64,000 nt of DNA from Clostridiaceae bacterium BRH_c20a (GTDB taxonomy: Bacteria > Bacillota > Peptococcia > Peptococcales > BICA1-8): assembly GCA_000961765.1 (NCBI GenBank), contig LADT01000047.1:16172-80171 (forward strand). Direction: 5' to 3'. A program made the position numbers and the translations under genes. The stretch's first letter is position 1. Each line of letters starts with the position of its first letter. Below the pieces are notes generated by a model. That model made no database searches. It saw only the letters and a list, made by a program, of their open reading frames with translations, and was not told where the DNA came from. This document shows, piece after piece, positions 1 to 11,494 of this stretch.

Positions 1-1
1 G

Positions 2-565
2 TCAAAGGCCTGTCAACAGTATGCACTTCAAGAATTTAAAGAAAACGTTATTCTCTTGGACACAGGTCATGCCAAATTAATGACACCTTATTATCATTTA
101 GATACATTGAGACAAATTCCAGGTTTTGAAAATGCACGTTTTGAAGACCCTTATGCTGGTGGAATCGGCAACTCCATGCGTTATTTAGCTCTTTCACCCA
201 GAGATAATTACTTAAAAACTAAGGGTGTAGATAATCTGTTTTGCGGAGGAGAAAAAGCTGGTTTATTAGTAGGACATACCGAAGCTATTGTTACTGGTAG
301 CCTAGCAGGCAATAATGCCGTTCGCTATGCCGCTAAAAAAGACTTAAAACAAATTCCTGCTAGCCTAGCAATTGGTGATGCTATAGCTTATGTCAATGAA
401 CAAATGGCTACAGAAGAAGGGCTGACTAAAAAATATACCTTCTCCGGTTCTGTATATTTCAAACGGATGGAAGAATTAAAACTTTATACTACTGATCTTA
501 ACGAGATTAAGAAAAAAGTAGAAGAAGCAGGAATGACAAACTTTTATAATCAATCAGTAGTATAA
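2..565 (+). CDS. GidA/MnmG-like FAD-dependent oxidoreductase, C-terminal part (5' end outside window)
   Basis: Frame is open from base 2 (SKACQQYALQEFKENVILLDTGH...). C-terminal FAD-binding-type motif NLFCGGEKAG-x4-HTEAIVTGSLAGNNA resembles the GidA family LFxAGQ..GY.EA...G..AG.NA motif. Confidence 0.7.
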   Translation, partial: SKACQQYALQEFKENVILLDTGHAKLMTPYYHLDTLRQIPGFENARFEDPYAGGIGNSMRYLALSPRDNYLKTKGVDNLFCGGEKAGLLVGHTEAIVTGSLAGNNAVRYAAKKDLKQIPASLAIGDAIAYVNEQMATEEGLTKKYTFSGSVYFKRMEELKLYTTDLNEIKKKVEEAGMTNFYNQSVV

Positions 566-594
566 GGCAAACCTCAATAATAGGGGGAAAAATT

Positions 595-1983
595 GTGGAA
601 GTTCAATTAACCTCATTACACTGGATCTATATCTTAATGGTGCTATTAGTTTTAGTTACAATGATATTACGCAGAGATACAGTATTACCTTGCTTTATCG
701 GTTTATTTGTTATCGGTTTAGCAGCTAAAGGAAGTCTTATTGGTGGATTACAGGTGGTATATAATGCTTTAATTGCTGCGGGCAATGAGTTCTGGGGGAT
801 TATTGCGATCATATCACTAGTTGTTGCAATGTCTAAAGCTCTAGCTGATGTTGGCGCTGATTATATTGTAATGCAGCCTGCTGCCCGGGCAATGGTTAAT
901 CCCAGCATAGCTTTCTGGGTATTAGGTATTGCTATGCTTTTAGTATCCTGGTTTGTGTGGCCTTCACCAGCTGTAGCATTAATTGGTGCCATTGTTCTTC
1001 CGGTAGCTGTTAGAGCAGGTCTGCCAGCCATGGGTGCAGCTATTTCTATGAATATTTTTGGACATGGTATAGGATTATCCTCAGATTACTTTATTCAAGG
1101 GGCTCCGGCTATTACTGCTAAATCAGCAGGTTTTGCCGATGCGTCGGGAGTAATCGGACCAAGTATTCCCCTATGGTTAACCTGTTCCGTAATTGCTAGT
1201 GTGACAGCATTCGTCATGCTCAAAAAAGACATTAGTAAGAATCAAGAATCAATTAAAGCTGAACAAAAACAAATGGCCAAAGAGCAGGAAGCCAAGTCTA
1301 ATCAGAAATTTACTTGGGTATCATATTTTATAGCGATACTTATTCCAGTAGCCTTTGGTCTTGATGTTGTTTTTCTTTATTTGTATGAGATACGGGGTGG
1401 AGATGCTACTGCCTTGATTGGTGGTACTGCAGCTGCCATTATGTGCTTGGCAGCCATTCTCCAATTTGGCTTTGATTCCCTCGAGAAGATTACTGATTAT
1501 ATACGGGATGGCTTTATGTTTGGTATTAAAATATTTGCTCCTGTAATTGTAATCGGAGGTTTCTTCTTCCTAGGTTCAGAGGGAACAGCTAAAGTAATTT
1601 TGGGTGAACAGGCAACTGGTCTATTGACTGACTTAGGGTATGCTTTAGCTAATAATGTACCTTTAAGCAGAATACCAGTAGCCTTTATTCAGCTAATAAT
1701 TGGTGCAATTACCGGTTTGGATGGCTCGGGCTTCTCAGGTCTACCATTGGTAGGCTCATTGGCCCAAACCTTTGGCAGTGCGATAGCAGCTGACAAAGGG
1801 ACCCTGGCTGCTTTAGGCCAAATAGCTTCAGTATGGGTAGGCGGGGGAACAGTAGTGCCTTGGGGATTAATTCCAGTTGCTGCTATATGTGGTGTTGACC
1901 CAATGGAATTGGCACGGAGAAACTTTATCCCCGTGGTATTCGGTTTGCTGGGTGCTACTGTCGTGGCAATATTCCTCATGTAA
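595..1983 (+). CDS. Polytopic membrane transporter (about 12 hydrophobic segments), substrate unknown
   Basis: 462 aa, GTG start after GGGGG RBS; many TM segments in two halves separated by a charged loop; GLDGSGFSGLP motif suggests ion-transporter (IT) superfamily. Confidence 0.7.
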   Translation: MEVQLTSLHWIYILMVLLVLVTMILRRDTVLPCFIGLFVIGLAAKGSLIGGLQVVYNALIAAGNEFWGIIAIISLVVAMSKALADVGADYIVMQPAARAMVNPSIAFWVLGIAMLLVSWFVWPSPAVALIGAIVLPVAVRAGLPAMGAAISMNIFGHGIGLSSDYFIQGAPAITAKSAGFADASGVIGPSIPLWLTCSVIASVTAFVMLKKDISKNQESIKAEQKQMAKEQEAKSNQKFTWVSYFIAILIPVAFGLDVVFLYLYEIRGGDATALIGGTAAAIMCLAAILQFGFDSLEKITDYIRDGFMFGIKIFAPVIVIGGFFFLGSEGTAKVILGEQATGLLTDLGYALANNVPLSRIPVAFIQLIIGAITGLDGSGFSGLPLVGSLAQTFGSAIAADKGTLAALGQIASVWVGGGTVVPWGLIPVAAICGVDPMELARRNFIPVVFGLLGATVVAIFLM

Positions 1984-2009
1984 AAAAAGGGTCTTTGAAC
2001 CCTTTTTTT
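1982..2009 (+). terminator. Intrinsic terminator (bidirectional type) after transporter
   Basis: AAAAAAAGGGT-ctttga-ACCCTTTTTTT hairpin directly after the stop codon. Confidence 0.7.
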
Positions 2010-2054
2010 AGTGGGCGAGTGAGCGAGTCGGTAAGTGGGCGAGAATCTAAACCC

Positions 2055-2123
2055 TGTCATCGCGGGGCGTACGTGGCGATCTCTCCCAAAAGATTGCCAC
2101 AGGCTAACACCTTCGCAAAGACA
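2055..2123. repeat. Degenerate REP-like imperfect palindrome (TGTCATCGCG...GGCGATCT / AGATTGCC...CGCAAAGACA)
   Basis: The two arms are imperfectly complementary; same architecture as the TGTCATCCTGAG hairpin elements elsewhere in the window. Confidence 0.45.
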
Positions 2124-2295
2124 ATCTTTGACAGACGCAAGAGTATGTCTTCAAAGTATATCAAACGCAACAAATTAACCCAGTAGCAGTTGTCAGACGC
2201 AACAATATGCCCCCAAAGCAACTGTCCTTCCGGACACTGAGCACTGGTCCCTGGGCACCGATCCCTAGACACCGACCCCAGATGCCACCCATTAG

Positions 2296-2937
2296 CTAGC
2301 TCGACAGCCACTGGTTATTCACCGTTATAAGATACTTATTAATTTTCTGAGACCACATCAGGGATGTAATTTTCCTCTGCCATAGGGGTGTGTTTAGGCT
2401 GATTAAGGTATCGGCATCGGAGCTTATTATTTCTTTGCCTAAGGAAGTAAATGTATCTATGGGTATTATCTCATCGGCTGGTGTTAAGCTTAGAGTATTC
2501 AGCCATTTCATGGAGAAGGGTCCAGAGATACATACTTCACAACCAGCATCTTTTAAAGTGGAGATTATATATGCTGCTAAATATATCCAAAAACCGTCAA
2601 CTATAATCATAACTTTCTGCATACTTTTCGTTACTAGAGGTGGTAATACTCTACCAAGCTTTTTATACTCAAAAGCTAAATTTATACCTAATAAGGGTGC
2701 TATCATTAAAGGTTCATTCAGGGCGGTATTTTTGAGGACAATTGTAAATAGCCCTTTTTCTTTTTGTGTTTTTACTACTATTCCCCAAAAGTTTGGTAAT
2801 TCTTGAGTAGATTTGGGTTTTAACTGCAAAACACTATATTCAGTAATTTCATCAACTTTTTGAACCATTTGGCAGGTAACTAAGATTATCCCATCTAGGA
2901 AGGTCTTTTCCATAATAGTTAACTCATTTACTTTCAC
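2296..2937 (-). CDS. Hypothetical protein (213 aa)
   Basis: GTG start with GAGGTG RBS 10 nt upstream; no overlap with other long genes; no recognisable motif. Confidence 0.55.
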   Translation of the reverse strand: MKVNELTIMEKTFLDGIILVTCQMVQKVDEITEYSVLQLKPKSTQELPNFWGIVVKTQKEKGLFTIVLKNTALNEPLMIAPLLGINLAFEYKKLGRVLPPLVTKSMQKVMIIVDGFWIYLAAYIISTLKDAGCEVCISGPFSMKWLNTLSLTPADEIIPIDTFTSLGKEIISSDADTLISLNTPLWQRKITSLMWSQKINKYLITVNNQWLSS

Positions 2938-3019
2938 CCCACGTCTTCACCTCATTTTTTCATTACTTTTCACATGTTTATTCCAATTTAGGGGAAAACT
3001 TTACAAAGAAAAATTTTTA

Positions 3020-3111
3020 CTCATGGGCTATACAGAATGTCAGTGCTTAAGCTCATGGGCTATACGGAATGTCAGTGCTAAAGCTCATGGGCTATACAGA
3101 ATGTCAGTGCT
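3020..3111. repeat. Tandem repeat, 32-bp unit, about 2.9 copies
   Basis: CTCATGGGCTATAC(A/G)GAATGTCAGTGCT(T/A)AAG at 3020, 3052 and 3084 (last truncated), followed by CAGTGCTA/CAGTTCTA 8-mers. Confidence 0.9.
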
Positions 3112-3228
3112 ACAGTGCTACAGTTCTACAGGAAAAAGGTTAAGGTTTCGCTTTGCTAGGTTAAGGTTAAGAAATTATCTGATTGGCAGATCTGGATGTC
3201 ATTGCTATAAAAGTGATTGATTATTCTG

Positions 3229-3306
3229 TGTCATCCTGAGGAAGGTACGACCGAAGGATCTGAGATTTTTAAGTACGTAAGATCCTTCGCATCACTCAGG
3301 ATGACA
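3229..3306. repeat. REP/MITE-like hairpin element, TGTCATCCTGAG family (copy 1)
   Basis: TGTCATCCTGAG...GAAGGATCT and AGATCCTTCG...CTCAGGATGACA are inverted arms; near-identical element at 27497-27576. Confidence 0.8.
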
Positions 3307-3435
3307 GGAATGCTTTCCTAAATAGACCATAGTTTAAATTCTTATTCTGGACACAGGTCAATGGTCACAGGTCCCGAAACCAAAAATACTGTCCAATAAT
3401 TTGGCAACGCCATTCAAAAAAAGGGGGATTCAATC

Positions 3436-3678
3436 TTGGCTAAACTTATGGAAAAGGTTATGGATGCGCTGGATGTGGAAACCTTTATAGTTTGTGATAG
3501 TGAAGATGAAGGCAAAGGAATAGCTTTAGAGATGATGAAAAATTTAGGGTTTGACGATGCAGACCTAGTATTTATTGAATTTATCGGACCAGGTGCTAGG
3601 ATTAGGGCCAGAGCATATCTTCATAGGTCGGGGGATAAATACGGTTGGTTATTCAGTAGCAGGGAGGGGGGTAAGTAG
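3436..3678 (+). CDS. Small subunit of putative B12-dependent mutase; resembles the KamE/OraE dimerisation domain
   Basis: 80 aa, TTG start with GGGGG RBS; stop abuts the next ATG. The beta-alpha-beta-beta pattern LDVETFIV / EGKGIALEMMKNLGF / DLVFIEFI / ARIRARAY is collinear with recalled KamE VQLSFTLP / RSAEAAKQIALKMGL / SVVMQQSL / FTFFVVYG. Confidence 0.55.
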   Translation: MAKLMEKVMDALDVETFIVCDSEDEGKGIALEMMKNLGFDDADLVFIEFIGPGARIRARAYLHRSGDKYGWLFSSREGGK

Positions 3679-5496
3679 ATGGAAAGGAAGGTACTTTTAG
3701 CACCTTTAGATCCGGTACATGATATTGGGTTAAAAATGATTAAAAGAGGTTTAGAAGAGTCAGGTTTAGAAACTAGGCTTTTACCACCAGATACTCCGCC
3801 GGAGGAAATTATTCGCATAGCGTTAGACGAAAAATTTAATACTCTATTATTAAGCAGGACCTTAGGATACGGAGTTGCTGAGCTATTAGCCCGCTTTGTA
3901 GATTTAGCAGATGCTGCCGGGTTAAGAGAAAATGTAAAGATCGGTATAGGCGGTATGGCTATCCGCCCGGAATTGGCAGCAGAATTAGGCTTTGATGCCG
4001 GCTTTGGGCCTGGCACTACTGTTGAAGAGGCTGTGGCCTTTGTTGAAGGTAGAGAGTATAATCCAGAGGAAACTATTATAAAAAAAGAAAAAACAGATTT
4101 TACAGCGCCATATAAATATACATATGGAAATCAAACTATGGGTAACCTTTTAGATAAGGTTTCCCAGCAAATTATTTCCTGGGTGGGTAATAAGACATCT
4201 CCGGGAGTGGAAAGGGCTAAGCTCAGAGAAGAATTATGGGATTACCAGTCTTTTCTCAAAATGCAAGAGAACCAAGAGTTCCTAAAAAAATATCCGGAGC
4301 TTTGCGACCAGGTACCTAAGGATTATTATTTACAAGGAAAGATTCATCCTAAAACCAGAGAGTTGACTAAAGAAGAGCTGGAAAACTATCAAAGTTTTAT
4401 TACCGAGATAAAAGAGAGAATGAAGGTTAAAAAGCTACAACATAGAAGAAAAGCACCGGTGATATGGAACCAATATGGAACAGGATGTCCTTTTATGGAT
4501 ATTGGCCATATTAAGGTAAGTGAGTCTTGGGGGGCTGACGGTGTTGTCCACTTTGACCCTTCCTGGGGTGCTAGGACAGAGGGGTTTTTAGGTGGAGACC
4601 TGACACATCAGGAGGATGGTACGGTTATTACACCCAATAATTTAGCTAGAATTTATCAGTCTTTAGAAAAATCAACCCTATGGCAGGTGCGGGCCCATCG
4701 GGGTCTTAATACACCAGAGACAGTAGTTTTGGCAGGGAAGATTGGTGCTGATTTTACGAAAATTAATGTTTGCTATGGTTCGTTAGCTGCAGGCACCGAT
4801 CCCGCACGGCTTACCGTAGATGGGTTTTATGCTATTAAATATGCAGCCCAATATAAGATGCCCTTTGATATCGTTACTAATGAGGAATTAACTGGGGTTC
4901 CTGCTTATAAAGCCTTTGCCGGGATGCTGATTATGGCTGATTTAGCCATAAAGCTAGGGGCGAGACCAATTTTACAGCCATTGTTTGCGTATTCTCCGGA
5001 GATGATGATTGGCGGGCAGATGGAGGACAACTATATCGATTTTAATGCAGCCAAAATCTATGCACTAAGAAGTATCATAGATGCACCAATCTGGCCTGGA
5101 GCACCTATTGGCTTTTTAACCCAGACCGAAGATAGAGTACAGTCGAGCATGTCTACTTCCTTACATGCTTTACTGGCAACAGCCTTAGGTGTTGATGCTA
5201 TTTCTATTGCCTCTGCTGACGAAGCCTACTCCGGTGGTCCTATAAGTGTGCCCTCTAAGATTGATACCCTAAGAGGGGTTGAGGAAAGCTTTAGGTTTTT
5301 AGGAAATGCAGGAATAAAGCCTACTGCCAAAGCAGAACAATGGCAAAAGGAAATAATTGACGGTATTGAGGGAGTCCTAAAACAGGTTGCAGCTAAAGGG
5401 GATTTTGTACAATCCCTTTATGATGGTTTATTGGGAACCAGAGAAGAGGGTGCATATCCCGGAAGGGCGGGCCGTAATACTGTAGAGGAAATTTAA
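3679..5496 (+). CDS. Cobalamin-dependent mutase-like protein: N-terminal B12-binding domain fused to a lysine 5,6-/ornithine 4,5-aminomutase-like TIM barrel
   Basis: N-terminal DPVHDIG (His-on motif variant), LLLSRTLG, GIGGMAI and ELGFDAGFGPG (KamE-like). The C-terminal region has TG..MDI, GAD, WGARTEGFLGG, GLNTPET, CYGSL, FVQSLYDGLLG and GRAGRNTV, collinear with the recalled KamD alpha subunit. Confidence 0.75.
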   Translation: MERKVLLAPLDPVHDIGLKMIKRGLEESGLETRLLPPDTPPEEIIRIALDEKFNTLLLSRTLGYGVAELLARFVDLADAAGLRENVKIGIGGMAIRPELAAELGFDAGFGPGTTVEEAVAFVEGREYNPEETIIKKEKTDFTAPYKYTYGNQTMGNLLDKVSQQIISWVGNKTSPGVERAKLREELWDYQSFLKMQENQEFLKKYPELCDQVPKDYYLQGKIHPKTRELTKEELENYQSFITEIKERMKVKKLQHRRKAPVIWNQYGTGCPFMDIGHIKVSESWGADGVVHFDPSWGARTEGFLGGDLTHQEDGTVITPNNLARIYQSLEKSTLWQVRAHRGLNTPETVVLAGKIGADFTKINVCYGSLAAGTDPARLTVDGFYAIKYAAQYKMPFDIVTNEELTGVPAYKAFAGMLIMADLAIKLGARPILQPLFAYSPEMMIGGQMEDNYIDFNAAKIYALRSIIDAPIWPGAPIGFLTQTEDRVQSSMSTSLHALLATALGVDAISIASADEAYSGGPISVPSKIDTLRGVEESFRFLGNAGIKPTAKAEQWQKEIIDGIEGVLKQVAAKGDFVQSLYDGLLGTREEGAYPGRAGRNTVEEI

Positions 5497-5498
5497 CT

Positions 5499-6524
5499 AT
5501 GCAGACAATTATTATTGGAATAGCTGGGACAGCTAAAAACACAGGAAAAACAACAACAACTTCCTCTATAATGTCAGAGGTTAAAGATAATAAGAAGCTA
5601 AGCTTGGGTTTGACTAGTATCGGTTATGATGGAGAAGACATAGATAATGTAACCGGTCTTCCGAAACCGAGAATCGAAGTTTGGCCCGGGGTTTTGGTGG
5701 CTGTAGCTGAAAAATGTCTGAAGGTTAGCACTGCGGAAGTAGAGGTTTTGGAGGTAACGAAATTTGCTACTCCATTAGGGAAAGTTATCTTGGGCAAGGT
5801 AACTAAGGGAGGTAGATTGGTCGTTGCCGGACCTAATAAAAGCAGTGAACTAAGACAGGTATTAAATAAGCTGCGCCACCATAATCTTAACTTGATTATA
5901 GTTGACGGTGCCTTAAACAGGATTGCACCTATGGTTGAGGTTGATGGATTAATACTGACAACCGGGGCCGCTCGGAAAAGCAAAATAAGTGAACTTGCTT
6001 TTGAAACCCATTGTCTAGTTGAGGTTTTTAATTATCCTGTTTTAAATATTGAACATGATACTTTCAGGTTTAATTCAATTTTAAGCAGTGATGCAGTAGA
6101 TGAATTGCTAAGACAATTAGAGACGGCTGGTACTGTCTATATAAACGGGGTTATAGGTGAGAAGAGCTTAATGTATTTGTTAGAGAAAGCAGAGAAACTA
6201 TCGGGAAAAAAATTAATCTTCCCTGACCCTATAAAACTTATGGTTATTGGTGATATAAATAAAATCCATAATATTTTTGCTCAACTTAAGCACAAGGGAA
6301 TAGAGATAGGAGTAAGAAAGCCTATCAAGATTATAGCTCTAACTATTAATCCCTACTATCCTAAATACCGATTTAATAGTGATGATTATGAAGTATCCTA
6401 TGTTGATAAGGAGAAGCTTTATGAAGCAATTGCCGGTAAGGTTTCTGTTAATGTTTATAATGTGGTAGAAGAAGGGGGAAAAATGTTATTTAATGATATC
6501 TTGAATTATAAAAATAATACTTAA
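5499..6524 (+). CDS. P-loop NTPase, KamB-like (aminomutase accessory/reactivase component)
   Basis: N-terminal GIAGTAKNTGKTT Walker A, IVDGALNR, LILTTGAA and C-terminal LTINPYYP; matches the protein family encoded between kamA and kamDE in lysine fermentation clusters (recalled). Lies 2 nt after the mutase stop. Confidence 0.6.
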   Translation: MQTIIIGIAGTAKNTGKTTTTSSIMSEVKDNKKLSLGLTSIGYDGEDIDNVTGLPKPRIEVWPGVLVAVAEKCLKVSTAEVEVLEVTKFATPLGKVILGKVTKGGRLVVAGPNKSSELRQVLNKLRHHNLNLIIVDGALNRIAPMVEVDGLILTTGAARKSKISELAFETHCLVEVFNYPVLNIEHDTFRFNSILSSDAVDELLRQLETAGTVYINGVIGEKSLMYLLEKAEKLSGKKLIFPDPIKLMVIGDINKIHNIFAQLKHKGIEIGVRKPIKIIALTINPYYPKYRFNSDDYEVSYVDKEKLYEAIAGKVSVNVYNVVEEGGKMLFNDILNYKNNT

Positions 6525-6976
6525 ATTGTAATATAACAATATAGTTTAAAAAAATTTCTTAGTATTATAAAAAAGAAAATTTTTGCGGTGATGGTACTAT
6601 AACCCTTGTTTATAATTACCATAGGGCTTTAATTATGACAAAAACAGATGACGGTAAATGTAGTAATATTCTAATGTGGTCGGAGGTTTAATTAAGAGCA
6701 AAAGGCCCGTTTGTTTGTTTGAGAGAATTATGTTAAAAATGTTATAACCCAACATATTTTCACTAGAGGAGGAAAAAATTATGCTTCGATAGATTTTGCC
6801 GATAAATTAGCAAATTAAAAATCTAAAAATTGAGAAAATTAAAAAGAATTATACTTGTTGCTAATTTTAGTATTTAAGTTCATCTCAGGAGGTTAATTGA
6901 ATAATATAGATATTACCTAAAAAATATTTTGCTTCTTTTGTATTAATTCTGTAAAAAAAAAGGGGGATCTTAAGGG

Positions 6977-8899
6977 ATGGGAAAATTTTCAGAGTTAATT
7001 TTAAAAGGAAGAGAAGAACGAAAAAAACAAGCCTTTGAGGGAACGTTATTAGACTACCTCAATTTATTACAAGAGGACCCGGCAATATATAAATTAACAC
7101 ACCAAAGAATGTATGAAATTATCACGGGTAAAGGTGTAGAGATTGTTAATACTAATGAAGAACCACGGTTAAGAAGGATTTATGGTAATGATGTCTTAAA
7201 GCAATACAATTTTTTTAAAGATGATTTTTTCGGTATTAGTAAGACTTTAATGAAAATTGTCCAGTATTTTAAAGCTGCAGCTATGGATGGAGAAGAGTCC
7301 CGCCAAGTACTTTATCTTGTTGGGCCCGTGGGGGCAGGAAAATCTTCAATAATGGAAGCTTTGAAGAAAGCTTTAGAAATGAGCCCGCCTGTGTATGCTC
7401 TTAAAGGCTGCCCAATGCGAGAAGAACCATTACATTTAATTCCCAAGCATTTGCGGCCACAGTTAGAAGAAATGTTAAAGATAAAAATTGAAGGAGACCT
7501 TTGTCCTATTTGTCGCTTTAGGCTCATAAATGAATATCAGGGTGAATTTGAACGATTTCCGGTTGAAACTGCAGATTTTAGTATTAGGTCCCGTAAAGGG
7601 GTGGGGGTAGTACCGCCGGTGGATCCAAATAATCAGGATACTTCAGTACTTATTGGCTCTGTAGACATCTCGAAGCTAGATTTATTTCCGGAGGATGATC
7701 CTAGGGTTATGTCCTTAAATGGAGCATTTAACGTGGGCAATAGAGGTATTGTAGAATTTATCGAGGTATTTAAAAATGAGGTTGAGTATCTTCATGTTAT
7801 GATTACTGCAACCCAGGAAAAAAGTATCCCTTCCCCGGGAAAAGGCTCAATGATTTATTTTGATGGAATTATTTTAGCCCATTCTAATGAAGCAGAGTGG
7901 AATAAATTTAAATCGGATCATACCAATGAAGCTATATTAGACAGAATAGTCAAAATTGAAGTGCCGTACTGTTTGGAATTAAACGAAGAAATAAAAATAT
8001 ATAATAAAATTCTAAAGAAAAGCAAATTTACCTGTCATATTGCTCCCCATACTATAGAGGTTGCCTCCATGTTTGCGATCATGACTAGGATAGCACCTTC
8101 AAACAAGGTTGACCATCTGACCAAAGTTAAAATTTATAATGGTGAGGAAATAGTGGAAAAGGGGAGTACAAAAAAAGTAGATATTCTTGAGCTTAGAGAA
8201 GAGGCACAACGAGAGGGAATGACAGGAATTTCCACAAGATTTATTATGAAGGCATTAGATACTGCTATGTCAGATGCAGAGCATGATTGTATCAATCCTA
8301 TTAGTGTCTTGGAAACTTTAGTTAGGGCAGTTAAAGAATTAACTATAGGTGATGAGGATAAGAAAAAATACCTTCGGTTTTTGCAGGATACTATTAAAAA
8401 GGAGTATCATAAAATACTTGAAAAAGAAGTAACTAAAGCTTTTATTCATGGCTATAAAGAACAGGCCGAAGATTTATTCAACAACTATCTGGACCACGCA
8501 GAAGCTTATGTCAATAAAACAAAGTTAAAAGATGCAAATACAGGTGAAGAATTAGAACCTGATGAAAAATTCTTAAGATCAATTGAAGAACAGATAGGTA
8601 TTACCGAAAGTGCTGCCCGTGGGTTTAGACAGGATGTCACAACATATATGTTTTACGTTATGCGAAGTGGTGGTAAGCTTGATTATTCATCCTATGGGCC
8701 ACTTAGGGAAGCAATTGAAAAGAAGCTGACATCATCAGTTAAGGAATTAAGCAGAATTATTACCCGTACTAAGGTTAGAGATAAAGAACAAAATGAAAAA
8801 TTTGATTCAATGGTTAAAGTTATGAAAGAATATGGTTATTGTGATCATTGCTGTAATGTAATACTCAAATACGCTGCTAATAATCTATGGAAAGATTAG
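6977..8899 (+). CDS. prkA: PrkA/YeaG family serine protein kinase (AAA+)
   Basis: 640 aa, Walker A GPVGAGKSS, CPMREEPL, NRGIVEFIEVFKN, HSNEAEW; followed by yhbH and spoVR. Confidence 0.93.
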   Translation: MGKFSELILKGREERKKQAFEGTLLDYLNLLQEDPAIYKLTHQRMYEIITGKGVEIVNTNEEPRLRRIYGNDVLKQYNFFKDDFFGISKTLMKIVQYFKAAAMDGEESRQVLYLVGPVGAGKSSIMEALKKALEMSPPVYALKGCPMREEPLHLIPKHLRPQLEEMLKIKIEGDLCPICRFRLINEYQGEFERFPVETADFSIRSRKGVGVVPPVDPNNQDTSVLIGSVDISKLDLFPEDDPRVMSLNGAFNVGNRGIVEFIEVFKNEVEYLHVMITATQEKSIPSPGKGSMIYFDGIILAHSNEAEWNKFKSDHTNEAILDRIVKIEVPYCLELNEEIKIYNKILKKSKFTCHIAPHTIEVASMFAIMTRIAPSNKVDHLTKVKIYNGEEIVEKGSTKKVDILELREEAQREGMTGISTRFIMKALDTAMSDAEHDCINPISVLETLVRAVKELTIGDEDKKKYLRFLQDTIKKEYHKILEKEVTKAFIHGYKEQAEDLFNNYLDHAEAYVNKTKLKDANTGEELEPDEKFLRSIEEQIGITESAARGFRQDVTTYMFYVMRSGGKLDYSSYGPLREAIEKKLTSSVKELSRIITRTKVRDKEQNEKFDSMVKVMKEYGYCDHCCNVILKYAANNLWKD

Positions 8900-8935
8900 T
8901 AAATACGATTTTGATTTACTACCGGGGGTGAGACT

Positions 8936-10117
8936 GTGACCATAATTAGGGAATATGACAGTAGAGGCCGGGATAGGGCAGCAGAAGATAGAAGGAGACA
9001 CCGCCAGCTTGTTGAGGATGCAATTAAAAAAAATATTGGGGATATAATTGCCGAAGAAAGCATAATTGGCCAAAGTAAAGATAAAAAAATCAAGATTCCT
9101 ATAAAAGGAATAAAAGAATACCAATTTATTTATGGCAAGAACAAACCTGGGTTTGGCTCAGGTGATGGTAGTGAAAAAGAGGGAGATGTAATTGCCAAGG
9201 ATGAGATTCAAAAAGTGAAGGATCAAGAAGGAACGGCAGGAAGTGAGGAAGGGGAAGATATTTACGAGACGGAAGTTACTATAGAAGAGTTAATCAACTA
9301 TTTATTTGATGACTTACAACTACCGTTTTTAGATAAGAAGAAGTTTAATGAATTAGAAACAGAAAGAAATTTCAAAAAGTTGGGTTATCAGAAAAAGGGT
9401 ATAAAGCCTAGATTGGCTAAGAAAAAAACAGTAATTGAGAAGATCAAAAGGAAAAAATCTTCTGAAAAAATTTATCAAGAGTTTTCGGAAATTTATGACA
9501 ATTTAGAAGGGCAAGAAAGGTTTCCATTTAAGGAAGAAGATTTAAAATACCATCGTTTAAGGGAAGAAATTAAAAAAGAAAGCAATGCAGTAGTAATTTG
9601 TATAATGGACACGTCGGGCTCTATGCATATTACAAAAAAGTATTTAGCTAGAAGCTTTTATTTCTTGCTTTATCAATATATAAAATTAAAATATGTTAAT
9701 GTTGAAATCATTTTTATTGCTCATTCCACTACCGCCAATGAGGTTAACGAAAAAGACTTTTTTCATAAGGGTGAGTCAGGTGGAACATATATTAGCAGCG
9801 GCTATGAAAAGGCAATAGAAATAATTGAAAAAAGGTATAACCCTGAGATATGGAATATTTATGCTTTCCATTGTAGTGATGGAGATAATTGGAGTGAAGA
9901 TAATCAAAAAGCTGTAGAACTTGCTGAAAAGCTATGTCAGATTTGTAACCTTTTTGGATATGGGCAAATAATGGCAGGCTATTTTAGCTCTATCAAGCAG
10001 GCATATGAAAATAAAATCAAGTATCCCAACTTTTCAATTGTTAATATCACAAGAAAGGAGGATGTTATTCCAGCTCTGAAAATATTATTAAGCAAAGAAA
10101 AAGAGCTTATGGAATAA
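8936..10117 (+). CDS. yhbH: Sporulation protein YhbH (YeaH/DUF444, vWA-like)
   Basis: DRRRHRQLV, IKIPIKGIKEY, CIMDTSGSM, GESGGT, HCSDGDNW; conserved context. Confidence 0.92.
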   Translation: MTIIREYDSRGRDRAAEDRRRHRQLVEDAIKKNIGDIIAEESIIGQSKDKKIKIPIKGIKEYQFIYGKNKPGFGSGDGSEKEGDVIAKDEIQKVKDQEGTAGSEEGEDIYETEVTIEELINYLFDDLQLPFLDKKKFNELETERNFKKLGYQKKGIKPRLAKKKTVIEKIKRKKSSEKIYQEFSEIYDNLEGQERFPFKEEDLKYHRLREEIKKESNAVVICIMDTSGSMHITKKYLARSFYFLLYQYIKLKYVNVEIIFIAHSTTANEVNEKDFFHKGESGGTYISSGYEKAIEIIEKRYNPEIWNIYAFHCSDGDNWSEDNQKAVELAEKLCQICNLFGYGQIMAGYFSSIKQAYENKIKYPNFSIVNITRKEDVIPALKILLSKEKELME

Positions 10118-10126
10118 TACTTATCT

Positions 10127-11494
10127 ATGATGGATTATACAATTAATCAATTGGAAATGTGGGATGAGAAAATTAGGGAAATAGTTTTTGATGCAGGACT
10201 TTTATGCTATCAACAGGAATTTGAAATATGTAGTTATGAAGATATGTTGTGTTATGTGGCTTATACAGGTATGCCTTCTCATTACCCCCATTGGAGTTTT
10301 GGTAAGTCCTATGAAAAGAATAAAACCTTTTATAGCTACAATCTGCAAGGTTTGCCATATGAAATGGTTATCAATTCTAATCCCTGTATTGCTTATCTAA
10401 TGCGGGAAAATACACTTCTTTTGCAGATTCTTACCATGGCTCATGTTTATGGGCATAACGATTTTTTTAAAAACAATAGGTTATTTAAGGAGGGTACTAC
10501 TGCTGAATATACTATTCAAATGTTTAAAAACCATGCTGATTGCATACGAAGTTATCTGCACGACCCCAGTATAGGTTATAAAAAGGTAGAACGCATTTTA
10601 GATGCAGCCCACGCTTTACGTTATCAAACTTGCAGATTAATAGGAGGCAAAAAATTATCAATTGGAGAGCAAAAACAAAGACTCTTAGATAGATATTATT
10701 GCGAATTGGAAGCAAAAAGGTCGTTTGAAGCTCAACCAGATATTCCCTTTCCTAATCTTAATAAAAAACCTATAGAGCCCGAAGTAGATTTAATGGAGTT
10801 TATTTTAGAATACAGTAAATTAGAAAACTGGGAAAAGGATATAATGCGAATTGTTGTCGATGAAACCAGGTATTTTATACCCCAGATTGAAACCAAAATA
10901 ATGAATGAGGGTTGGGCTAGTTTTTGGCACTATCAGATTCTAAATAAATTAAAGCTATCACAAGATCTGTTTTTTGAATTTATCAACCGCCATAATCAAG
11001 TCATCAGACCTTCATTAGGAAGTATCAATCCATATTATCTAGGTTTTAAAATTTTCTCAGATATAAATCAAAAATATGGTCTAGCTAAGATGTTTGAGGT
11101 AAGGGAAATAGAACGGGATCAATCCTTTATCTACAAGTACCTCACTGAAGAGCTATGTAGGGAAATGAATCTTTTTCAATATCAGAAAAAAGAAGATGAA
11201 TATGTAATTGATGAAGTGGCCGATGAAAAAGGCTGGAAGGAGATAAGAAATAACCTGGCAAATAGCCTAGGGATGGGAAATATCCCTTCAATAAAAGTAA
11301 TAGAATTTTTACAGGATAGAACATTGTTATTAGAACATGAATATGATGGCCGAGAATTAGAATTAGCCTATGCTAAAGAAACTCTAAAATATTTAGGGAC
11401 GCTCTGGGATGGAAGGATAATTTTAGAAACGTCAATAGATAAAACGAAGAAAAAAATTATTTGTGATGAGGAAAAAAACATTTCCTTTATTTAA
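10127..11494 (+). CDS. spoVR: SpoVR family protein
   Basis: GMPSHYPHWSFGK, GLPYEMVINSNP, HVYGHNDFFKNN, TKIMNEGWASFWH, NPYYLG. Confidence 0.93.
   Translation: MMDYTINQLEMWDEKIREIVFDAGLLCYQQEFEICSYEDMLCYVAYTGMPSHYPHWSFGKSYEKNKTFYSYNLQGLPYEMVINSNPCIAYLMRENTLLLQILTMAHVYGHNDFFKNNRLFKEGTTAEYTIQMFKNHADCIRSYLHDPSIGYKKVERILDAAHALRYQTCRLIGGKKLSIGEQKQRLLDRYYCELEAKRSFEAQPDIPFPNLNKKPIEPEVDLMEFILEYSKLENWEKDIMRIVVDETRYFIPQIETKIMNEGWASFWHYQILNKLKLSQDLFFEFINRHNQVIRPSLGSINPYYLGFKIFSDINQKYGLAKMFEVREIERDQSFIYKYLTEELCREMNLFQYQKKEDEYVIDEVADEKGWKEIRNNLANSLGMGNIPSIKVIEFLQDRTLLLEHEYDGRELELAYAKETLKYLGTLWDGRIILETSIDKTKKKIICDEEKNISFI

Follow-up and report, generated by a model that had tools for sequence, protein, structure and literature searches.

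To our knowledge, about a dozen isomerase reactions that depend on adenosylcobalamin (AdoCbl) are known, and new ones are rare. The described systems closest to the protein studied here are lysine 5,6-aminomutase (5,6-LAM, KamD-KamE; EC 5.4.3.3; PDB 1XRS, 8T0V and 9Q1A), ornithine 4,5-aminomutase (OAM, OraS-OraE; EC 5.4.3.5; PDB 3KOW-3KP1) and glutamate mutase (GlmS-GlmE; EC 5.4.99.1; PDB 1CCW and 1I9C). We analyzed a stretch of 64,000 nucleotides from Clostridiaceae bacterium BRH_c20a (contig LADT01000047.1, positions 16,172 to 80,171 of the forward strand; called the window below). As judged from sequence comparisons, one of its genes probably encodes the catalytic large subunit of an uncharacterized vitamin B12 radical enzyme, built like an aminomutase and devoid of the aminomutase anchor for pyridoxal 5'-phosphate (PLP). 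This protein, referred to here as the mutase, appears to share ancestry with 5,6-LAM and OAM without holding PLP in their way, and is most likely PLP-free.

In 5,6-LAM, PLP forms an imine with Lys144 of the β subunit. Its phosphate is contacted by Arg184, Arg268, Ser189 and the amides of Gly187-Gln188-Ser189; the other contacts are made by Ser238 (pyridine nitrogen), Tyr263 (ring stacking), Asn299 (phenol) and Tyr236 (PMC3958899). In both known aminomutases the lysine of the Rossmann domain acts as an open-state lock (PMC3958899). In this lock model, the PLP-lysine link holds the B12 domain off the active site until the substrate arrives.

Domain organization and relationship to aminomutases

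The mutase gene and its two immediate neighbors are:

3436..3678, + strand: small subunit, 80 residues; immediately precedes the mutase gene in the locus maps, with a stop codon that adjoins the ATG of the mutase
3679..5496, + strand: mutase large subunit, 605 residues; B12-binding Rossmann domain (about 1-124), helical linker (about 125-255) and KamD-like triosephosphate isomerase (TIM) barrel (about 256-605)
5499..6524, + strand: KamB-like P-loop protein; NCBIfam NF052386 (reactivase_KamB), 225 bits for a cut-off of 210

Pfam recognized the N-terminal domain as PF02310 (residues 11-119, 51.7 bits), and NCBIfam and PDB sequence searches both placed this B12 domain nearest to KamE and OraE. 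Residues 131-605 matched no Pfam family even at E ≤ 10, neither PF09043 (Lys-AminoMut_A) nor PF06368, and the barrel matched no PDB chain either by phmmer or with the family profile. An AlphaFold model of the mutase (pLDDT 78.8) was compared to the PDB with Foldseek. The top three matches were all KamD (8t0v_A, 1xrs_A and 9q1a_C; E 3e-16 to 3e-14), with a target TM of 0.61-0.63 and an identity of 14-15%. They were followed by IcmF, OraE (E 4e-10), GlmE (E 5e-10), HCM and methylmalonyl-CoA mutase (MCM), all of which are AdoCbl mutases.

Profile comparisons were made with a set taken from genomes of the phylum: 12 KamD/KamE loci (10 usable KamD, 12 KamE), 12 OraE and 14 GlmE. With hhalign, the mutase family aligned to KamD at E 2e-4 (probability 27-44%) and to OraE at E 1e-3; the alignment to GlmE was not significant (E 0.11, probability 0.5%). 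The B12 domain was matched to KamE at E 1.8e-18 (probability 99.1%), and to OraE by HMMER at E 7e-10. Short strings are common to the mutase family and KamD/KamE, namely ELG(F/Y)DAGFGPGT in the B12 domain and TEGF and GL.(T/M)PE in the barrel. Sequence comparisons and the structural model together support the assignment of the mutase to the aminomutase lineage.

The small subunit was related to residues 34-80 of KamE (hhalign probability 71%, E 3.6e-5). PF16554 (OAM_dimer) was detected below threshold in 26 of 46 small-subunit homologues (best E 3.6e-4), any other family appearing in at most 6. It is probably a free-standing aminomutase dimerization domain, equivalent to the N-terminal domain of KamE. 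From the fold, B12-domain and small-subunit matches, it therefore appears that the parts of KamE and KamD are all present in a rearranged form. Compared with KamD-KamE, which provides both the closest barrel fold and the closest B12 domain and likewise has a dimerization module and a KamB-type helper, the N-domain of KamE is here a separate 80-residue protein and the Rossmann domain is fused N-terminal to the barrel. OraS-OraE also combines barrel and Rossmann domain in one chain, with a small extra subunit, but in OraE the barrel comes first and the Rossmann domain last, an order which is reversed in the mutase.

Corrinoid proteins joined to a methyltransferase with a TIM barrel are common in acetogens and Peptococcaceae, as are proteins that sense B12. 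A protein of either kind would not be a radical isomerase. The genome is rich in corrinoid proteins, and the B12 domain also matches the NCBIfam corrinoid proteins MtgC and MtbC, weakly (E 3e-7 to 1e-3). However, Pfam did not find the B12-binding_2 cap domain in the mutase, and AdoCbl mutases head the fold matches of the barrel, no methyltransferase barrel being ranked above them. Moreover, the helper gene fits the KamB reactivase model and not a RamA-type activase, and the small subunit resembles an aminomutase dimerization domain. We therefore regard a corrinoid methyltransferase or sensor as highly improbable.

The B12 domain lacks the lysine-bearing insertion

Two elements of the B12 domain were compared in detail with the aminomutases:

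3709..3729, + strand: cobalt-ligand motif D11-P12-V13-H14-D15-I16-G17, of the form DxxHxxG, not DxHxxG
3733..3753, + strand: post-His helix, with K19 (His+5) at 3733-3735, K22 (His+8) at 3742-3744 and L25 (His+11) at 3751-3753

The cobalt-ligand motif differs from the KamE-type DxHxxG, which every other B12 domain encoded in the genome has. Pro12 occupies the canonical Asp position (His-2) and aligns with OraE D613 in HMMER; the Asp is at His-3. In an alignment of 69 distinct members of the mutase family, all residues of the motif except I16 are invariant.

All 24 KamE/OraE sequences have the lysine at His+11. OraE keeps it (Lys629), as well as all the PLP contacts, whereas the mutase family does not: His+11 is Leu25 in the mutase, which has no equivalent of Lys144-β. 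An earlier reading of the DNA from its letters alone (the sequence-only reading) had noticed the lysines at His+5 and His+8, the lack of one at His+11 and the Asp displaced by a Pro (D-P-V-H), and the codons bear out all three observations. It had also suggested that IKRG, around K22, could be aligned to IKHG of OraE with a 3-residue deletion. A plain HMMER alignment does print this arrangement, which made K22 a candidate for a displaced PLP lysine. This candidate was ruled out by two results. K22 is variable across the 69 members (31 K, 21 R, 10 A, 7 other), and the hhalign alignment to KamE places an 8-residue gap in the mutase exactly over KamE MKGYAGHY, which contains the PLP lysine. K19, on the other hand, is invariant. 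Lysine near His+5 is nevertheless common in B12 domains, since in this genome Lys is also found at His+5 of the MCM-like small subunit and at His+4 of the corrinoid proteins.

The spacing between the His and the glycine following β2 describes the same difference. It is +22 in the MCM-like and corrinoid B12 domains of the genome, +31 in KamE and +26 in OraE, which thus have 9 and 4 extra residues, respectively. The aminomutase PLP lysine sits inside this insertion of 4 to 9 residues. The mutase family has no insertion; its spacing is likewise +22, with a proline there (Pro22), and this canonical post-His spacing is also that of glutamate mutase.

The sequence-only reading had proposed that the PLP site was lost or remodelled. 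The canonical site is indeed absent, but the word "lost" goes further than the phylogeny. In a tree of the B12 domain, which is short and has long branches, the mutase family formed one clade (support 96/96), and KamE and OraE were joined (87/40) with the family outside them. The MCM-like and corrinoid B12 domains, used as outgroups, also lack the lysine-bearing insertion. Because the family branches beside KamE and OraE and the outgroups have no insertion, loss of the PLP lysine is unproven; a gain of the insertion by the aminomutases may be at least as likely as its loss in the mutase family.

Most PLP contacts are replaced in the barrel

The segments of the barrel that correspond to PLP contacts of KamD are:

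4549..4575, + strand: β2 loop, H291-F-D293-P-S-W-G-A-R299 (HFDPSW at 4549-4566), with D293 in place of the phosphate ligand Arg184
4690..4704, + strand: end of β3, R338-A339-H340-R341-G (RAHRG), with R341 in place of Ser238 and A339 in place of Tyr236
4759..4791, + strand: end of β4, K361-I-N-V-C-Y366-G-S-L-A-A371 (CYG at 4771-4779), with A371 in place of Arg268
4870..4887, + strand: end of β5, I-V-T400-N401-E402-E403 (IVTNEE), in place of KamD G-E-D298-N299

The KamD motifs IRTTGQS, NYCSG and INTGEDNY are present in 1xrs_A, and their numbering fits R184, G187-Q188-S189, Y236/S238 and D298/N299. This numbering is exact because one of the fetched KamD proteins is essentially the 8T0V protein, the numbering of 1XRS being that of 8T0V minus one. 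R184, Q188, S189, Y236, S238, Y263, R268 and N299 did not vary among the 22 KamD/OraE sequences, even though the relationship between the two families is distant. The replacement of IRTTGQS, NYCSG and INTGED by HFDPSW, RAHRG and IVTNEE, described in the sequence-only reading, was thus confirmed on both sides.

The barrel contacts were mapped with four hhalign alignments, three based on KamD and one on OraE only. All four place D293, which is invariant in the family, on R184, a charge reversal at a phosphate ligand. The phosphate loop G187-Q188-S189 is either deleted or replaced by W-G-A, R268 becomes A/G371, and R341 and A339, at the positions of Ser238 and Tyr236, are essentially invariant. 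R184, Q188, S189, S238 and R268 of KamD are thus all replaced. Under every alignment the family lacks the segment of the Schiff-base lysine, the two arginines and the Q-S loop that contact the phosphate, and the serine at the pyridine nitrogen; six of nine PLP signature positions are absent, and at most two are retained. The two doubtful positions depend on the alignment. Y366 is paired with Tyr263 by all three KamD-based alignments and not by the OraE-only one, so the sequence-only statement that the ring-stacking Tyr (CYG) is kept stands for the former and fails for the latter. Conversely, N401 aligns to the phenol Asn solely in the OraE-only alignment, the register of which differs from that of the others.

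Two segments of the barrel, W-Q-V-R-A-H-R-G-L-N-T-P-E (4681-4728) and T-K-I-N-V-C-Y (4753-4779), resemble GlmE Q-V-R149-H-G-T-P-D and N178-I-P-Y181, in an alignment that is not significant. R149 and Y181, which we take to be active-site residues of glutamate mutase, do correspond to R and Y in the GlmE sequence used. Since the PLP-free glutamate mutase may have Y181 at the place of Y366 (with the same reservation as to significance), a tyrosine there need not mean PLP. The retained Tyr can therefore not be taken as a sign of a ring-shaped ligand.

The residues lining this region are strongly conserved. H291, D293, R299, R338, H340, R341, K361, N363, Y366, T400, N401 and E403 are invariant, and E402 is found in 67 of the 69 members. 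The protein has three invariant lysines, K19, K361 and K459, of which K361 alone is at the barrel mouth. Judging by its residues, this pocket is mixed but strongly cationic and would suit a carboxylate-rich or phosphorylated ligand.

We favor, with somewhat better than even confidence, an AdoCbl isomerase that would bind an anionic, nitrogen-containing substrate directly and work with no PLP in the canonical site, the amino group being handled by a separate PLP enzyme and by RidA. Several points weigh against this interpretation. The mapping of the barrel contacts comes from weak profile alignments (hhalign probability 27-44%) and predicted strand register. Tyr366 may still be a PLP contact, and Asn401 possibly too. 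The cationic cluster R299, R338, H340 and R341 could serve as a phosphate cup of another design, with the invariant K361 as a Schiff-base lysine inside the barrel. An Arg at the pyridine nitrogen, where R341 is placed, is also what alanine racemase has, a PLP enzyme of fold type III. Finally, the displaced Asp of the His motif may affect cobalt ligation.

The mutase could instead be an aminomutase that depends on PLP as well as on B12 and whose PLP site has been rebuilt. The cofactor would be held by the Arg/His cluster and linked to K361 in the barrel, in place of a lysine of the Rossmann domain, or would be present only as the substrate aldimine, and an amino group would be shifted between adjacent carbons of an amino acid. 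K361, one of only three invariant lysines, is located at the C-terminal end of β4, five residues before Y366, and R299, R338, H340 and R341 are both invariant and cationic. Y366 falls on Tyr263 or N401 on the phenol Asn according to the alignment, aminomutases are the nearest relatives for both the fold and the B12 domain, and the operon context is one of amino-group chemistry. But a rebuilt site would have to work although all the residues that grip the phosphate in KamD and OraE are gone, one of them being now an Asp, and although the segment that carries the open-state-lock lysine in the known enzymes (PMC3958899) is absent. In addition, PF09043 does not detect the barrel, and the operon already has a dedicated PLP enzyme. 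A rebuilt PLP site thus seems unlikely to us, though it is the most probable of the alternatives.

The mutase could also be a carbon-skeleton mutase of the glutamate-mutase type, aminomutase-like by descent, in which an amino-dicarboxylate held by arginines would rearrange by fragmentation and recombination with B12 alone. This is one form of PLP independence and overlaps the interpretation that we favor. It would account for a post-His spacing like that of MCM-like small subunits and not of KamE/OraE, and glutamate mutase itself combines AdoCbl and a TIM barrel and needs no PLP; GlmE is among the Foldseek matches (E 5e-10). The possible local resemblance (W-Q-V-R338...T-P-E and N363-x-x-Y366 to Q-V-R149...T-P-D and N178-x-x-Y181) goes in the same direction, but with an hhalign E of 0.11 and a probability of 0.5% it may be due to chance. 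In that alignment the claw arginines R66 and R100 of GlmE have no counterpart, and R149 corresponds only possibly to R338. Furthermore, PF06368 gives no match, the subunit structure differs, and the partner genes are unlike those of the methylaspartate pathway. A mutase of this type is distinctly improbable.

Altogether, of the two alternatives offered by the sequence-only reading, a PLP-independent member of the family or altered PLP anchoring, the comparisons uphold membership in the aminomutase lineage, agree that the canonical site is missing and dismiss anchoring at K22; they make PLP independence the most likely outcome.

Size, distribution and conservation of the family

The search for homologues gave over 1000 proteins with a length of about 605 residues. 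Identity within the family is 65-95% across many genera, and the closest 120 listed homologues are 66-93% identical to the protein of the window. Carriers include Peptococcaceae, Negativicutes, heliobacteria, Tepidanaerobacter and others. The named homologues are mostly labelled just "cobalamin B12-binding domain protein" or similar, and a literature search covering B12 aminomutases, KamB reactivases, DUF6917 and new AdoCbl mutases found no paper on the family. A HMMER scan of 1.84 billion cluster representatives gave a single other full-length 50% cluster, at 52% identity; the barrel therefore has no sequence relatives beyond the mutase family.

Among 401 evenly sampled genomes of the phylum, 38 carry the family (33 of 278 genera), and several of these also encode a true KamD or OraE. 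For comparison, PF09043 was run on 301 genomes of the phylum and picked up KamD and OraE in 69 of them; no KamD was found in the genome of the window.

The alignment of 69 members contains 136 invariant positions. D11, P12, V13, H14, K19, H291-W296, R338, H340, R341, K361, Y366, T400, N401 and E403 are identical in all 69, so the motifs discussed above do not result from chance or sequencing noise. As the replacement residues are themselves invariant, the mutase appears to be under strong selection and not to be a decaying aminomutase.

Operon and partner genes

The rest of the operon lies on both sides of the window boundary. Upstream of the window, on contig C22, are genes for DUF6917, a RidA-like protein, a 486-residue PLP enzyme and a 432-residue flavoprotein. 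Inside the window, the features upstream of the small subunit are:

2..565, + strand: C-terminal part of the GidA-fold flavoprotein (PF01134; full gene C22:15438-16736, 432 residues)
595..1983, + strand: membrane transporter, 462 residues, without family assignment
2296..2937, - strand: divergent gene for a 213-residue protein without Pfam match, recurrently placed between the small subunit and either the transporter or the flavoprotein

Partner genes were counted in 75 loci of other genomes. At 65/75 loci each, the PLP enzyme and the flavoprotein are the most frequent; the KamB-like gene is present in 58/75, the small subunit in 57/75, DUF6917 in 50/75, an FCD-type GntR regulator in 47/75 and the RidA-like protein in 44/75. 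A secondary transporter occurs in 28/75 loci; according to the maps, about 8 other loci have adjoining genes for an Opp/Dpp-type ATP-binding cassette (ABC) transporter instead. Minimal loci retain the regulator, the small subunit, the mutase and the PLP enzyme, and are surrounded by genes for cell division, DNA methylases and the like, which have no relation to the operon. An NAD(P) enzyme resembling pyrroline-5-carboxylate (P5C) reductase is an additional member of at least 15 loci.

The partner PLP enzyme is an ordinary fold-type-I protein with an invariant D289-K290. It is nearest to SepCysS, SelA and class-V aminotransferases, and its PDB relatives are only remote. Since the operon carries this enzyme, PLP chemistry in the pathway has its own dedicated catalyst. 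In several genomes DUF6917 and the RidA-like protein are fused into one 304-residue protein (for example L047:13326-14240, cluster c42), which implies that they act together. The flavoprotein has only remote relatives in the PDB, MnmG/TrmFO for its C-terminal part and generic FAD folds; the part encoded upstream of the window contains a C-x6-C-x2-C-x3-C-P motif that looks like a [4Fe-4S] motif. The transporter is 60% identical to the one located beside the mutase of Sporomusa ovata. As for the ABC-transporter binding protein found near the operon, its relatives are generic family-5 proteins of the peptide/opine/nickel type only.

The KamB-like protein is presumed, from its match to the reactivase model, to be an ATP-dependent reactivase or cofactor chaperone of the mutase. 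Unlike in the lysine aminomutase system, no KamC-like gene follows it or is found elsewhere in the locus, and kamA, kdd, kce and kal, the genes of lysine fermentation, are not found around the mutase. Because the genome has no KamD and the KamB cut-off is passed all the same, the automatic name of lysine aminomutase reactivase is probably wrong in detail for this gene, which is prone to such mislabelling by automatic annotation.

A second full copy of the operon, with the same gene set, is present at C34:45149-54985; its mutase barrel is 82% identical to that of the window. A close relative, Peptococcaceae bacterium BICA1-8, also has two operon loci. The two copies suggest two related substrates. 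As the genome has two operons and no KamD, and as other genomes carry the family alongside KamD or OraE, the function should be distinct from that of lysine aminomutase.

Proposed mechanism and significance

In the mechanism that we propose, the N-terminal Rossmann domain would bind the cobamide in the base-off/His-on mode through His14 and cap the C-terminal KamD-like barrel. We infer that the cofactor is AdoCbl rather than another cobamide form. Homolysis of the Co-C bond would give the 5'-deoxyadenosyl radical, which would abstract a hydrogen from the substrate in the pocket equivalent to the PLP site of KamD. This pocket, predicted to be lined by D293, R299, R338, H340, R341, K361, Y366, N401 and E402/E403, would accept a carboxylate-rich or otherwise anionic nitrogen-containing substrate. 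The 80-residue protein would supply the dimerization domain that is part of KamE in aminomutases, and the KamB-like ATPase would repair or reload the cofactor. Amino-group chemistry would be left to the PLP enzyme of the SepCysS/SelA/DgaE type, with its own lysine, to the RidA-like imine deaminase often fused to DUF6917, and to the Cys-motif flavoprotein, the order of these steps in the pathway being putative. In one form of this mechanism, the substrate may bring its own planar imine or carbonyl, for instance as a cyclic imino acid produced by the flavoprotein or the PLP enzyme, which would take over the role of the PLP aldimine. The RidA-like and P5C-reductase-like proteins encoded in operons of the family are consistent with imine intermediates.

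That the family represents a new class of AdoCbl isomerase, of the same stock as the aminomutases, with a PLP-free active site and a rearrangement outside the current list of B12 isomerizations, is a tentative proposal to which we give slightly less than an even chance. If true, it would open an undescribed route of anaerobic catabolism in roughly one in ten of the sampled genomes of the phylum. The family is strongly conserved and widespread, often alongside true lysine or ornithine aminomutases. The mutase has no lysine lock, and its B12 domain and barrel form a single chain; this raises the question of how radical generation is gated and makes the protein a natural test case for the lock model. 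The identity of the substrate would also assign functions in a dark eight-gene operon, including DUF6917, an unclassified PLP enzyme, a GidA-fold flavoprotein and an unclassified transporter.

Other features of the locus

The divergent 213-residue protein is 50% identical to the product of the gene at the same position in locus L019. Its cluster occurs in 17 loci, some members having a Cys-rich N-terminus, and it may be an unrecognized regulator or accessory protein of the operon.

A link between the operon and diaminopimelate dehydrogenase (Ddh) was considered and rejected as not general. Full-length Ddh was found in only 2 of 43 operon genomes. In these two, the region around Ddh contains none of the operon genes and has no sequence in common with the mutase locus.

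An Rfam scan of positions 1-9000 of the window gave no match, and therefore no cobalamin riboswitch in this region. A scan for promoters and terminators between 1900 and 7000 returned a number of sites no higher than in shuffled sequence.

Directly downstream of the operon, at 6977-11494 on the + strand, three open reading frames were read by eye as a sporulation trio of the prkA / yhbH / spoVR type, seemingly unrelated to the mutase.

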